NCBI GenBank assembly: GCA_000004695.1
Contig: CM000154.2
Location: 1,664,001 to 1,728,000 of the forward strand
Length of the DNA stretch: 64,000 nucleotides
Reading direction: 5' to 3'
Source: Dictyostelium discoideum
Lineage: Eukaryota
Under the pieces are notes generated by a model. It ran no database searches. It saw only the letters and a list, made by a program, of their open reading frames with translations, and was not told the DNA's origin. This document shows positions 52,440 through 58,717 of the stretch, in pieces; position 1 is the first letter of the stretch; every line of letters begins with the position of its first letter. The position numbers were made by a program, and so were the translations under genes.

Positions 52440-53039
52440 AAAAAAATAAAAATAAAAAAAGGATTTTTTCAAAAACACAACTGACTCAAAAGATCTGAAT
52501 TTGCTTATTAAAATACAAATAGAAGCATATATACAACTACATTGTTTAAATACTCCGCATAAATCATTTCTATTTTTAATGAAATGACTAAAATAATGAT
52601 TAGCTATTTCATAGTCTTTTATTATTTTATAGTGTGAACGTATTTTATATTCTTTTATTATTTTATAGTCTGAATACATTGCTAAAAATACAATCTACAT
52701 GAATTTGGGTTAACCCCATTTAAAATAAAAATATTATTTTTTTTTTATTATTTTATTTTTTTTATTTTTTTTATACATAATATTTGTGTTAAAATGAAAT
52801 TTATTTTTTTTATGTTTTTTATAATTGCTTTAGGTCATACACTTATAAACAGTTTTGATCAAGAATGTAGCAATCTTTATTTATTGAAACGTGATTTAAC
52901 CTATTTAACATCAATATTTTAAATAAAAAAAATATTTATTTAAAAATTTTTTAGTTTTTTTTAGTTTTTTTTAATTTTTAATTTTGATTTTTTTTTTTTT
53001 TTTTCATTTTAAATATTCATTATAATTCAACATACAAAA

Positions 53040-53198
53040 ATGGTAAACAATGATGCAAAAATTGGTAGAAGAGAATTCTATGATAGAGTAGAATCGGTCA
53101 GACCAAAATCTCCACCACGTGAACGTCCAACATACACTTATTCAAACAGCCGTACAGTCGACGGTTATTCAAATCGTGGCCCAAGAGCTGATTTCTAA
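53040..53198 (+). CDS. Small ORF (52 aa, MVNNDAKIGRREFYDRVESVRPKSPPRERPTYTYSNSRTVDGYSNRGPRADF) in a locally GC-richer patch
   Basis: ATG to TAA, read by hand. The codons used (cgt, gtc, gac, ggc) are noticeably less AT-biased than the surrounding sequence. Not in the ORF track (under 60 aa). Confidence 0.25.
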   Translation: MVNNDAKIGRREFYDRVESVRPKSPPRERPTYTYSNSRTVDGYSNRGPRADF

Positions 53199-53736
53199 TC
53201 TTTTAAAAAAAAATTATTAGTTTTTTTTATATGTCTATATGGTGAATGTAAATATTTACAATTTATAGTAGCAATAATAAATACTTTATTTTCAGTATTG
53301 CCAACAATCAGCAATACTAATTATATAATTTATTTAATTTTAGCACAACATCATCGAAAGAAAATTCAAAATAATAAAAAGAAATAAAAAAATAAAATTT
53401 TTTTTTTTTGTTTTATTTATTTATTTATTTATTTATTTCACCACAACCATTGGTTCATATTTTGGCAAACCCGATCCTTATGAAATATTAATCCAAGATT
53501 GTAGATGGAAGAAAGATAGTTTAAAAGTTAGATTCAAAATTGAACAAGTACAATAAATTTATATATTTAAAATAAAATTCATGAAGCATGTAATTGTTAT
53601 GTAAATTTTTACATAGACGCGACGATGCAAAAATAAATTTTAATTTTTTTTGTTTTTTTTTTTTTTTTTTAAAAATGAGATATATTTTTATAAAAATCAT
53701 TGCAAAAAAAATTTTTACTATATTTCTTAATTCAAA

Positions 53737-54105
53737 ATGAACAACATTATTACTGTCGAATCGTGTAATAATACTAATAAATGGAACAACACATTTTATT
53801 TAAAATATTCTGATCACCAAATCAATTACACCCAAAGAGCTTGTTGGGCAATCGGAGTTAGTGGAGACGTTGTTGATCATGCATTAGTATCAATCGATTC
53901 AAATCATTACAGACTTACTGTTACTTTCGACGGAAATCCAAGTAAATTCAGAATTCTTAGAGGCGACCGTGAAAATATTATGAATGAAATTGTTACTTTA
54001 AATGGTACTCAAAACTTTACAATTCATGGACTTGCCAAGGAAGAATCAATTAAAAACACTGCCCTCCATTTTCAACATATTCAACCAGACTATACATTTG
54101 TATAG
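53737..54105 (+). CDS. Hypothetical protein (122 aa), intronless, compositionally atypical (higher GC than neighbouring genes)
   Basis: ORF-track entry. The sequence contains gggcaatcggagttagtggagacgttgttgatc, ttcgacggaaatcc and agaggcgaccgtg. No domain recognised. Confidence 0.4.
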   Translation: MNNIITVESCNNTNKWNNTFYLKYSDHQINYTQRACWAIGVSGDVVDHALVSIDSNHYRLTVTFDGNPSKFRILRGDRENIMNEIVTLNGTQNFTIHGLAKEESIKNTALHFQHIQPDYTFV

Positions 54106-54253
54106 GGTATTATTAAATTAAAAGACCAAAATAAATTTAAAAGGTTATTTTTGAACCGTTTGTTTACCAACAAAATAGATAACTCTTATATAAGGGACAA
54201 TACATATTATTTTATTTTAAAAAATTATTTCGTAAATAAAATCGTTTTGTAAA

Positions 54254-55225
54254 TTATTGTTCGCTATGGTTGTATGTTGCGATAGATGGGTCATTAAATG
54301 TATTTAAATATTCAATATCTAATTCTCCAATTGGATTCTTTTTTGACACATGATTCATTAGATTTAACACGTCACTTGATTTAATATTTTCATTAATTTT
54401 TAAATATGATATAAAACTTTTGATAAATGAGTGTACATACAACGCACATGAGTTTTTTGTTTTTTGTTTTGTGTGATCTTTACTAAATAAGATTTTAATA
54501 TTATTTTTAAGCAACCAGCTATATAACTCTTTAACTTCTTCGTTTTCAAAATAGTTTTCTTCTGATCCTGCTGGATCATAAATAAAACAATAATAACTTC
54601 TTCTAATTTTTATTATAACGACTAAACTAACGTGCCATTCAACTATTTCATCTCCAGAATTTGTATATACAAAGAATGAGATAATATTATGTTTACCAAA
54701 ATTTGACCATACAGCATCATTTTCACTGAACATTGCACCACCTTTATTTTTAAAAAACTTTTCAGAGATTGGTTCTATTGTTCTATCTTTATCGTTATGA
54801 ATGAAATGCATATTTAAATTTGGTTCAGATGATAATAAAGAAGTTTTAAAGCTTGAACAATAAACACCATTAAACTTTATATGATTTTGTGAATGTTCAA
54901 ATACTATTTTTTTTTTTTCTTTCTCTAATTTCTCTTGATATTCTTTTATCAACAATATCTTTTGAACATCATATTGTTTTTCCATTTCCTTTTGAATTTC
55001 TTGTTGTTTTTCATTCAATTTATTTTCAAATAAATTATGCTTTTCTAATTCCATTTGATCTTTTTCTTTTTGTTGTTTTTCTCTCCATCTTTCACGATTT
55101 ACTCTTCGATATTCTTGAGTTGTTTCATCATTTTTATATTTTGTTCTTCTTTTTGATGCACGATCAATCTCTCTCTTTCTTGCTCTCTTTTCTTCTTCAG
55201 TTAAATTTGATTTCGGTCTTGCCAT
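54254..55225 (-). CDS. Protein with a C-terminal Ulp1/SENP-like (peptidase C48 fold) domain and an N-terminal basic/charged coiled region, 323 aa
   Basis: The C-terminal half reads GKHNIISFFVYTNSGDEIVEWHVSLVVIIKIRRSYYCFIYDPAGSE ... KELYSWLLKN ... KQKTKNSCALYVHSFIKSF. This fits the C48 catalytic order His(WHV)...Asp(YDP)...Gln...Cys(NSCALYV) and the usual spacing. The N terminus is MARPKSNLTEEEKRARKREIDRASKRRTKYK... Intronless. Confidence 0.5.
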   Translation of the reverse strand: MARPKSNLTEEEKRARKREIDRASKRRTKYKNDETTQEYRRVNRERWREKQQKEKDQMELEKHNLFENKLNEKQQEIQKEMEKQYDVQKILLIKEYQEKLEKEKKKIVFEHSQNHIKFNGVYCSSFKTSLLSSEPNLNMHFIHNDKDRTIEPISEKFFKNKGGAMFSENDAVWSNFGKHNIISFFVYTNSGDEIVEWHVSLVVIIKIRRSYYCFIYDPAGSEENYFENEEVKELYSWLLKNNIKILFSKDHTKQKTKNSCALYVHSFIKSFISYLKINENIKSSDVLNLMNHVSKKNPIGELDIEYLNTFNDPSIATYNHSEQ

Positions 55226-56730: not shown

Positions 56731-56798
56731 ATTATAAATTTAATTTTTAATTTTATTTTTAACTTTTTTTTTTATATTTTTTTTAATTTCGTAAATTA

Positions 56799-57575
56799 TT
56801 GCTAAATATTACTAATATGTACACATACGAAGACTTTGAAATTATTTTAACATCACCTGTAAACAACTACCACAAAAAATTAAGTCATACAATTAAAAAA
56901 AACAAAATAACATTAAATAATAAAGAATTTGATATCATTGAAAATAATTCTATAAAATATATAAAATCAAGTGATAAAGAAGAAATAATTGGGCATTACC
57001 ATATAAATAATAATAAACATTTAAATTATAAAAATACTAGAAAACGTATAGTAGATGATCAAATTCTAATAAAATCAACAGAAATTAAAAGTTACATTTT
57101 AAAATGTGGATGCAACCCCTGCAACAAAGAAAACGATAATGAAATTAGTATTAATAGAGACGTAAAAGAGAATATAGGTCCAATAAAATTATTTAAAGAA
57201 ACAAATCTTACAAATTGTAATAATAATAATAATAATATTACTACTCTACAACCTAATATTGAAATTATATCAAGTTACAATGAAAATGAAGAAACATACG
57301 AAGAAGAAACAAATAAAAAAAGAAAATTAAATTTTGAAAATTGTTCAACATATTCCACACAATTTACTTTAGGTTCAAAAAAAGTTTTAGTTATTTCAAC
57401 TACTAAAGAAAATATAAATAATTTAGATAATAAAGAGTCTATTGTAGAAAATTCATTTTTTATTTTTGATAGTTGCCAAATAGAAAATAATGAAATAAAT
57501 AACTATAAAGAAATAATATTATCAAAAGTTAGCCAAGACCCAATGTTTATTAAATATTTAAACATGTATAAATAA
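56799..57575 (+). CDS. Hypothetical protein (258 aa), intronless, N/K-rich
   Basis: ORF-track entry. Contains CGCNPC. No domain recognised. Confidence 0.35.
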   Translation: MLNITNMYTYEDFEIILTSPVNNYHKKLSHTIKKNKITLNNKEFDIIENNSIKYIKSSDKEEIIGHYHINNNKHLNYKNTRKRIVDDQILIKSTEIKSYILKCGCNPCNKENDNEISINRDVKENIGPIKLFKETNLTNCNNNNNNITTLQPNIEIISSYNENEETYEEETNKKRKLNFENCSTYSTQFTLGSKKVLVISTTKENINNLDNKESIVENSFFIFDSCQIENNEINNYKEIILSKVSQDPMFIKYLNMYK

Positions 57576-57619
57576 AATAAATAATTTAAAAATTTTTAAT
57601 TAAAACTAGAGCATATATA

Positions 57620-58333
57620 TTAAATATATATTAATGTAACTTTTATTTGGTTTTTAGATATGTCGGTGAGTGAATTAAAGTATCGTTCAAAGTGTGTATC
57701 TTTATGCATACATAGTTTTACTTGAAATTTTATTTGATTTTTTTTTGATTTTCTTTTAATTAACAACCAAATTGAATTAAAAAAGTATTTTAATTTTGAT
57801 TGTCTATCATAATCTGAATCTTTTGCTTGAAACAAAAAAGAAAGTTTGATTTCTTCAATTGCGGTGTAGAAATCAAATATTATATAAAAACGATAACGAT
57901 TAGAAGAACTATTAGGCAATATGTTTTCTATATTGGTATACTTTAAAGATGGTAATGTTGGTAATAATAATTGAGAAATGATTATTGGAGTTATATGTTT
58001 TTTATCAAAATCATCGCATTTTGTAAAATCAATAGTGAAAATATCAACTACTGAAAAAAATTCATACTTGGTTGAATTGTACTTAACTTGTTTTATTGTT
58101 TCATAATGGAAAACCTTGGGTGGTTTATAATCAAAACTTCTTTTACCATTTTGGTCCAAAATCGGTACAAATAATGGAAATGTTTTATCTTCTAATTTCT
58201 TTGATAAAACTTTGAAAAATTGTTTTGAAACTAATGATAGATTATATATTTCTTTGTTTTTTATTTTAGTTTCATATTTTATTTTCTTATAATCTTCATT
58301 TAAATCTTCATATGATTCATCTGGTTTTGACAT
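57620..58333 (-). CDS. Hypothetical protein (237 aa), intronless
   Basis: ORF-track entry. No domain recognised. Confidence 0.4.
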   Translation of the reverse strand: MSKPDESYEDLNEDYKKIKYETKIKNKEIYNLSLVSKQFFKVLSKKLEDKTFPLFVPILDQNGKRSFDYKPPKVFHYETIKQVKYNSTKYEFFSVVDIFTIDFTKCDDFDKKHITPIIISQLLLPTLPSLKYTNIENILPNSSSNRYRFYIIFDFYTAIEEIKLSFLFQAKDSDYDRQSKLKYFFNSIWLLIKRKSKKNQIKFQVKLCMHKDTHFERYFNSLTDISKNQIKVTLIYI

Positions 58334-58717
58334 GAGACATAGATCGATTTAGATTTTTTTTATATTTTTTAAAATATTATATGAAATTTCAAAAAAGGAA
58401 AAATATTTTTTTTGTTTTTTTTTTTTCCTTTTTTTTTTTCCTTTTTTTTTTTTATAATTGAGGTGATCGCAAAAATTTTTTTTTTTAGTATTATTTTTTT
58501 ATTTTTTTTTGAAATTTTTATTTGTTTTTATTTTATTATTATTTTTTTTTTTTTTAAAAAATTATTGTTATAAAAAAAACTATTACTTTGATCGTTACCA
58601 CTATGGTATTAATCAGTGAACAGAAATTTAAAGAATTTGGTAGTGGCATTTTTGACTTCCTCTATAATAATTTTATACCAAAAAAAAAAAAAATAATATT
58701 AGTTTGGTTTATTTTTA

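Follow-up and report, generated by a model that had tools for sequence, protein, structure and literature searches.

A putative, divergent clan-CE, Ulp1-like peptidase domain encoded in a block of short single-exon genes on Dictyostelium discoideum chromosome 5

Introduction

Peptidases of the Ulp1/SENP type (MEROPS family C48, PF02902) belong to clan CE and have their catalytic domain at the C-terminus, preceded by a basic N-terminal extension. The triad residues follow each other in the order His, Asp, Cys. The His and the Asp lie on consecutive strands and the Cys at the N-terminus of a helix, with an oxyanion-hole Gln a few residues before the Cys. Here we describe DDB_G0288581, a gene annotated only as hypothetical, and the block of genes around it (about 53.0-58.4 kb) in a 64,000-nucleotide stretch of D. 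discoideum chromosome 5 (contig CM000154.2 of assembly GCA_000004695.1, positions 1,664,001 to 1,728,000, forward strand), hereafter the window, in whose coordinates all positions are given. The protein resembles the Ulp1/SENP enzymes in the order and approximate spacing of its His, Asp and Cys (19 residues from His to Asp and 43 from Asp to Cys), in the Gln six residues before the Cys of the AX4 protein, in a PF02902 score at the cut-off, in a basic N-terminal extension before a C-terminal catalytic-type domain and, in a predicted model, in having the His and Asp on consecutive strands and the Cys at a helix N-terminus. It differs from them in having 'WH' in place of 'HW' and 'NSCA' in place of 'DCG', in a short core of about 125 residues, whose match is confined to the C-terminal half of the Pfam model, and in belonging to a family with only two detectable relatives, with neither SENP orthology nor pairwise similarity to solved members.

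Large DNA viruses also carry Ulp1 domains. In Ginger1 and Mutator transposons, Ulp1 domains occur as cargo and are fused or adjacent to the transposase (PMC2836005). The locus shares with Ginger1 and with the KI-MULEs and other Mutator elements a Ulp1-like domain, an intronless gene, a lineage-restricted region and a partial second copy in a related genome. Unlike these elements, it has no transposase or integrase, no terminal inverted repeats and no target-site duplications, and no multi-copy family was detected. An initial annotation, made from the sequence alone, had taken the block for a compositionally atypical, lineage-specific insertion of mobile, viral or horizontally acquired origin. 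Our reading, to which we give a probability of about 0.6, is that the block is native D. discoideum chromosome 5 and consists of six short, single-exon, taxonomically restricted orphan genes and one ATG-less relic, with a divergent CE peptidase among its products.

Results

A probable clan-CE, Ulp1-like domain with a conserved His-Asp-Cys triad

The features of the peptidase gene are as follows.

54254..55225, minus strand: DDB_G0288581, 323 amino acids, with a basic N-terminus and a C-terminal Ulp1/C48-like domain; identical to XP_636655.1
54914..55225, minus strand: residues 1-104, rich in Lys, Arg and Glu, with clusters resembling nuclear localisation signals, e.g. KRARKREIDRASKRRTKYK (from the translation)
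54320..54700, minus strand: peptidase core, residues 176-302, of clan-CE type
54632-54634, 54575-54577 and 54446-54448, minus strand: candidate triad residues His198, Asp217 and Cys260 (from the translation)
54464-54466, minus strand: Gln254, six residues ahead of Cys260 (from the translation)
54179..54701, minus strand: 3' half of the gene (residue 176 to the end) and its 3' flank, 91% identical by blastn to positions 9938-10450 of a locus in another isolate (L002, see below)

We accept a clan-CE, Ulp1-like assignment for the domain of DDB_G0288581, which is divergent but has its triad intact. In an alignment of the AX4 protein, the copy at L002 and a 29%-identical homologue (P0006), His198, Asp217 and Cys260 were invariant, and Gln254 was present six residues before Cys260 in both the AX4 protein and the L002 copy. 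The curated gathering cut-off of Peptidase_C48 (PF02902) is 20.7 bits. The C-terminal 219 residues scored just under it (20.1 bits, E 6.4e-4), and sub-sequences of 148 and 107 residues scored over it (21.4 and 22.3 bits), as did the L002 copy (20.9 bits). The alignment covered positions 96-208 of the 217-position model and began at or beside His198. The second family to be matched was adenain (PF00770, family C5, clan CE), with E 0.02-0.03. The initial annotation had already called a Ulp1-like peptidase here from a His/Asp/Gln/Cys arrangement; this arrangement corresponds to H198, D217, Q254 and C260, and the family call is borne out, at borderline strength, by the Pfam scores, the conserved triad and the fold searches described below.

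A single-sequence AlphaFold model of the peptidase had a predicted local distance difference test (pLDDT) value of 39.9. In this low-confidence model, the predicted elements ran in the order strand (His), strand (Asp), helix, strand and helix (Cys). The His begins one strand, the Asp ends the strand that follows, and the Cys is near the N-terminus of its helix. Fold searches with the model were enriched for clan CE, and the recurring matches were adenain (C5), the poxvirus I7L and African swine fever virus S273R proteases (C57/C63), the bacterial CE deubiquitinases ChlaDUB, SseL, RickCE and CidB, and YopJ acetyltransferases (C55). As a control, the equally poor model of a neighbouring frame (56194-56688) gave zero CE-clan matches. 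A Foldseek comparison with the viral models of BFVD returned nothing at E<=0.001 for the peptidase; the named matches at the top of that list were Ulp-like or adenain proteases. Searches of PDB sequences with the family profile and with the domain found nothing relevant and no pairwise similarity to a solved Ulp or SENP, and BLASTP gave no alignment to an approximate Ulp1 sequence. The assignment of DDB_G0288581 as a putative, very divergent clan-CE peptidase, one that is not orthologous to SENP, is new here.

Relatives of the peptidase

We searched 1.84 billion representatives from genomes and metagenomes with the C-terminal 219 residues, using exhaustive phmmer at E<=0.001. The search returned five matches, comprising two true relatives (P0005 and P0006) and three repeat artefacts. 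No SENP was among them, and we do not take the peptidase for an orthologue of the cellular SENPs. P0005 is a protein of 105 amino acids from GCA_054859355.1, an assembly labelled D. discoideum. P0006 has 279 amino acids, is 29% identical over 202 residues and is encoded on a 4.3-kb metagenomic contig (L003) from the Joint Genome Institute. This contig is AT-rich and Dictyostelium-like, with a GC content of 0.22-0.36, a GC content at the third codon position (GC3) of 0.15 in the gene, and poly-Thr tracts. Directly 3' of the peptidase homologue (L003 993-1401) lie tandem repeats that translate as LQCKNNTAKLQCNIAS-like units, and the contig has two further open reading frames (ORFs) without a Pfam domain, one of which was also found in a Logan SRA assembly.

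A metagenome scan with the peptidase alignment was negative; the scan is pattern-based and detects close relatives only. A word-indexed protein search with the peptidase returned only the protein itself and missed both a 96%-identical fragment and the 29%-identical homologue, and with six frames concatenated it did not return even the self proteins and was uninformative. Since this search is patchy, "no homologue" in its results does not amount to orphan status. In the same type of search, the CCZ1-like gene that flanks the block had a single EukProt match.

The basic N-terminus and a proposed role

The Lys/Arg/Glu-rich N-terminus has a comparable basic counterpart in the distant homologue P0006. 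Against PDB sequences, the region gave only non-significant matches, to calnexin (E 0.65) and to the basic region of MafG (E 2.6). A basic leucine zipper reading of the region was dropped, with no Pfam match and MafG at no better than that E value. We propose a localisation, an activity and a substrate class for DDB_G0288581: the basic N-terminal region would target the protein to the nucleus, where the domain would act in the manner of the Ulp/SENP enzymes and cleave SUMO, Nedd8 or ubiquitin, as ubiquitin-like modifiers, from substrates or from precursors.

A partial copy at a different locus of another isolate

In the assembly GCA_054859355.1, which appears to represent a diverged wild isolate of the discoideum clade, the peptidase gene recurs as its 3' half, in a neighbourhood that differs from that of AX4, beside a Cob_adeno_trans gene and a prefoldin (Prefoldin_2) gene. 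The L002 copy has no upstream ATG and has a 10-bp deletion near its end. Across the 134 codons shared with AX4, we counted 17 synonymous and 5 non-synonymous differences, and a rough estimate of the ratio of non-synonymous to synonymous substitution rates (dN/dS) was ~0.1. The counts and a ratio of this size point to past purifying selection on the peptidase domain, acting through most of the period after the two copies diverged.

A 110-nt upstream patch (window 52714-52821) was also found at L002 (11649-11751), 93% identical and in collinear order. The patch overlaps a 42-codon ORF (52794-52922, plus strand) whose start, MKFIFFMFFIIALG, resembles a signal peptide. What L002 keeps of it, at 93%, is the first ~9 codons with ~80 nt upstream, and the ORF itself is not conserved there. 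Between the two shared pieces, DDB_G0288577 and DDB_G0288579 are replaced in L002 by an unrelated orphan of 277 amino acids (P0011, KAM9958257.1), which was found in GCA_054859355.1 only. The arrangement in L002 resembles the exchange of a cassette within flanks that are conserved. No second copy of the peptidase was found in the 64-kb window, and the one partial copy belongs to a different isolate. The comparison shows local gene turnover and gives no evidence for a defined mobile element.

Genes of the block

All seven ORFs that the initial annotation had listed as intronless were found at their positions; six of them are annotated genes, but the seventh is an open frame without an ATG. Five are letter-for-letter identical to the AX4 proteins DDB_G0288577, 579, 581, 585 and 587, which are labelled "hypothetical" or "uncharacterized". 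In a second D. discoideum assembly (GCA_054883475.1), the region is identical to AX4 and the gene models comprise the same single-exon genes, of 122, 323, 235, 252 and 237 amino acids. All six genes are single-exon in the available D. discoideum annotations. Neither the six gene IDs nor the UniProt and assembly accessions were mentioned in the literature that was searched. The members of the block other than the peptidase, and its two flanks, are as follows.

53040..53198, plus strand: DDB_G0288577, hydrophilic Arg/Pro-rich hypothetical protein of 52 amino acids, identical to XP_636653.1
53737..54105, plus strand: DDB_G0288579, hypothetical protein of 122 amino acids, identical to XP_636654.1 and to KAM9947309.1 of the second assembly
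55547..56254, minus strand: hypothetical protein of 235 amino acids, a gene call in GCA_054883475.1, equated with DDB_G0288583 by elimination only
56194..56688, plus strand: unannotated open frame of 164 codons with QQQAPGHFNCGFYAAS, without a usable start codon
56817..57575, plus strand: DDB_G0288585, Asn/Lys/Ile-rich hypothetical protein of 252 amino acids, identical to XP_636657.1 from the ATG at 56817
57620..58333, minus strand: DDB_G0288587, hypothetical protein of 237 amino acids, identical to XP_636658.1
45025-50010, minus strand: flanking gene for villidin (vilA), recognised from its translation
58.9-60.6 kb, minus strand: flanking CCZ1-like gene DDB_G0288589, with an Intu_longin_3 domain

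The vilA gene corresponds to DDB_G0288557 (PMC3188802). The 52-residue ORF and DDB_G0288587 had no Pfam match, DDB_G0288585 had no meaningful one, and DDB_G0288579 had zero at E<=10. Neither DDB_G0288579, DDB_G0288585 nor DDB_G0288587 had a relative in IMG/VR, and against PHROG DDB_G0288579 gave a single non-significant match (E 0.063). The exact sequence of the 235-residue protein was not found in the protein collection, and all its Pfam and PHROG matches were low-complexity matches from its repeat tract. The tract is a Thr/Pro and then Thr/Gln/Glu stretch that is encoded by DNA repeats of period 12 (55964-56149, minus strand; repeat family D7). DDB_G0288585 and DDB_G0288587 are convergent, with a spacer of 44 bp. 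Between DDB_G0288577 and DDB_G0288579 lies a short GC-richer patch (53437-53556, plus strand) that is open for 39 codons (FTTTIGSYFGKPDPYEILIQDCRWKKDSLKVRFKIEQVQ) up to a TAA. No ATG and no obvious acceptor site were found in this patch, which could be a relic of a terminal exon. The five non-peptidase genes presumably function as proteins.

The ATG-less frame at 56194-56688

The open frame at 56194-56688 is probably a decayed gene relic or pseudogene. In frame, an ATG first occurs at codon 107, and the start given for this ORF is a TTG (56314). A further ATG, at 56225, is one frame off, which suggests a frameshifted relic. No spliced start was found: the sole GT..AG pair would give an intron of 39 nt and does not restore the frame. 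The frame is unannotated in AX4, judging by elimination of IDs, and was not called in GCA_054883475.1. It shows a coding-like periodicity, with GC contents of 0.38, 0.31 and 0.11 at codon positions 1, 2 and 3 (GC1, GC2 and GC3), and lies in the 562-bp spacer of two divergent genes (55547-56254, minus strand, and 56817-57575, plus strand). It thus occupies a spacer where an AT-rich promoter would be expected. The opposite-strand overlap of ~60 nt in the initial annotation, with 55547-56254 (minus strand), arises solely from a stop-to-stop reading of the frame.

A second Cys-box-like motif had been proposed in this frame. The motif QQQAPGHFNCGFYAAS (QQQAPGHFNCG) is present within 56314-56688 (plus strand), but the frame, whole or in pieces, had no Pfam match at E<=10, its hhalign probability against the peptidase family was 0.3%, and its model had no CE-clan fold matches. 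The resemblance to C48 is a match by eye. The best match among PDB sequences was a non-significant one to the TRIM24 bromodomain (E 0.1). Both assignments, the C48 "Cys box" and the bromodomain, were rejected, with no support from hidden Markov models, profiles or folds.

Base composition and codon usage

The composition of the block does not bear out a GC-richer, atypical island. Per kb, its GC content was 0.20-0.25, which is poorer than the 0.30-0.36 of the large conserved exons (8-12, 30-32 and 45-50 kb). GC3 of the seven frames was 0.10-0.25, compared with 0.07-0.24 in the other long coding ORFs of the window, and, ranked against chunks of matching length cut from 15 other coding ORFs in the window, these values lay between the 19th and the 91st percentile. 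Per ORF, GC3 was thus host-like, and the third-position composition of the block is that of ordinary Dictyostelium coding DNA. The highest GC3 (0.25) was that of DDB_G0288579. The ORF of 52 codons at 53040..53198 was the only one in the block with a high total GC content (0.41). This ORF had a GC3 of 0.23, a GC1 of 0.47 and a GC2 of 0.51; it is GC-rich at codon positions 1 and 2 only, because the peptide is rich in Arg, Pro and Gly. Its codons include AGA (five) and CGT (four) for Arg and CCA (five) for Pro, alongside cgt, gtc, gac and ggc. C-ending codons and CGT are reportedly preferred in highly expressed Dictyostelium genes.

Searches for a foreign or mobile origin

Nothing that we tested supported a foreign, viral or transposon origin of the block. 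In a Pfam search, none of the seven frames contained a transposase, integrase, reverse transcriptase, polymerase or viral hallmark domain. Between 50 and 61 kb, no terminal inverted or direct repeats and no target-site duplication were found. The repeats of this interval are AT-rich low complexity only; among inverted pairs, the longest consist of (ATT)n/(AAT)n-type tracts that match at 70-88%. Neither a tRNA nor an Rfam RNA was found in the window. Five frames (the peptidase and four others) had no relatives in IMG/VR, in pattern-based scans that detect close relatives only, and PHROG matches at E<0.01 fell solely on the Thr/Pro/Gln repeat.

In the InParanoid table of D. purpureum orthologues (PMC3188802), vilA and DDB_G0288575, 589 and 593 are listed, and DDB_G0288577 to 587 are absent among the entries listed. 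The local listing rate is ~17 of 50 IDs, and six misses would be expected by chance at ~8%, so that the table lends weak support to lineage restriction of the block. The lineage-specific part of the initial annotation is thus weakly favoured, with the flanks listed and the six genes not, but its mobile-element, viral or horizontal part found no support.

Discussion

Several observations weigh against the reading of the block as native chromosome with a divergent CE peptidase. The PF02902 score is borderline, and obtaining it requires removal of the low-complexity N-terminus; full-length DDB_G0288581 had no Pfam match at E<=1, and P0006 alone had none. The position of Gln254 is not Gln in P0006. 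Both AlphaFold models, of the peptidase and of the neighbouring frame, are of low confidence (pLDDT ~40). YopJ-type acetyltransferases share the CE fold, so the fold does not fix the chemistry of the domain. The orphan status of the five non-peptidase genes is drawn from weak negatives, namely the patchy word-indexed search and the orthologue-table entries listed. The synonymous codon usage of 53737, 56817 and 57620 fitted that of the window's conserved genes poorly (at or below the 0.6th percentile of conserved-gene chunks). This is a weaker or unusual bias and not a foreign GC signature and, with GC3 normal, would fit genes that are young or weakly expressed.

The same codon statistics bear on whether the ORFs at 53040, 55547, 56817 and 57620 are functional genes at all, or young de novo ORFs or annotation artefacts in gene-like DNA of a fast-evolving intergenic region. 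They have no Pfam domain, each of those found in the protein collection is a single-member cluster at 90%, the ORF of 52 codons was not called in the second assembly, and the ATG-less frame of 164 codons in the expected promoter of 55547-56254 suggests local rearrangement and decay. Yet open frames of 235-258 codons are very improbable by chance given the many stop-like triplets, most of the ORFs have the coding-like periodicity GC1 > GC2 > GC3, and five ORFs were called by two independent annotations; we find this explanation fairly unlikely. For the peptidase, the corresponding question is whether the domain has the CE fold without being a protease for ubiquitin-like modifiers, as a YopJ-like acetyltransferase or a pseudo-enzyme that serves as a binding module. 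We regard this as unlikely: the best Pfam families, C48 and then C5, are both peptidases and both full-length members have an intact triad, even though P0006 has not retained the oxyanion-hole Gln and no sequence similarity to a solved Ulp or SENP was detectable.

Still less probable, in our view, is an origin of the block, or of the peptidase gene at the least, as the remnant of an insertion by a DNA transposon or a large DNA virus with Ulp1-like cargo. Ginger1 and Mutator elements are known to carry Ulp1 domains (PMC2836005), as noted above. The block genes are all intronless, with no D. purpureum orthologues among the table entries listed. For the peptidase itself, the weak fold matches include proteases of nucleocytoplasmic large DNA viruses and poxviruses. 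Large DNA viruses, too, are known carriers of Ulp1 domains. The presence of the peptidase 3' half and of the upstream patch of 110 nt at an unrelated locus in another isolate indicates that the segment was copied at least once. Against an insertion of this kind, no ORF holds a transposase, integrase or polymerase domain, terminal repeats beyond AT-rich low complexity and a nearby tRNA are lacking, GC3 is host-like, and neither IMG/VR (five frames) nor BFVD (E<=0.001) gave a match. In the exhaustive search, the peptidase had relatives in one genome labelled D. discoideum, on one AT-rich, Dictyostelium-like contig and nowhere else, and the genes beside the peptidase are not co-conserved in L002 or L003. 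A related idea, which we likewise hold to be improbable, is that DDB_G0288581 and its two relatives are the tip of a Dictyostelium-restricted, fast-evolving CE protease lineage that is duplicated and moves between loci, a relic of an unrecognised mobile or selfish element with Ulp1-like cargo and with the orphan ORFs as decayed or replaced passengers; movement would be invoked because the 3' half and the promoter-like patch adjoin a different orphan gene in the wild isolate. Transfer of the peptidase gene from an intracellular bacterium (Chlamydiae, Legionella or Rickettsia), in which CE-clan deubiquitinases serve as effectors, seems very improbable indeed. The exhaustive phmmer search of genomes and metagenomes gave no bacterial match at E<=0.001, the peptidase had no PHROG match, its codon usage is host-like and its N-terminal region is eukaryote-like and of low complexity.

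The reading that we prefer is therefore that of native chromosome 5 sequence with short, taxonomically restricted single-exon genes, one of which encodes a divergent CE peptidase. It leaves the current understanding of SUMO-type proteases and of Dictyostelium genome evolution unaltered, and it removes a false lead, as the block is not a compositional island. DDB_G0288581, annotated so far only as hypothetical, gains a testable functional assignment, that of a Ulp1-like peptidase of clan CE for which a candidate triad is named, in a peptidase family that is extremely narrow. The partial copy and the cassette-like replacement mark a small locus for studying gene turnover in the discoideum clade.

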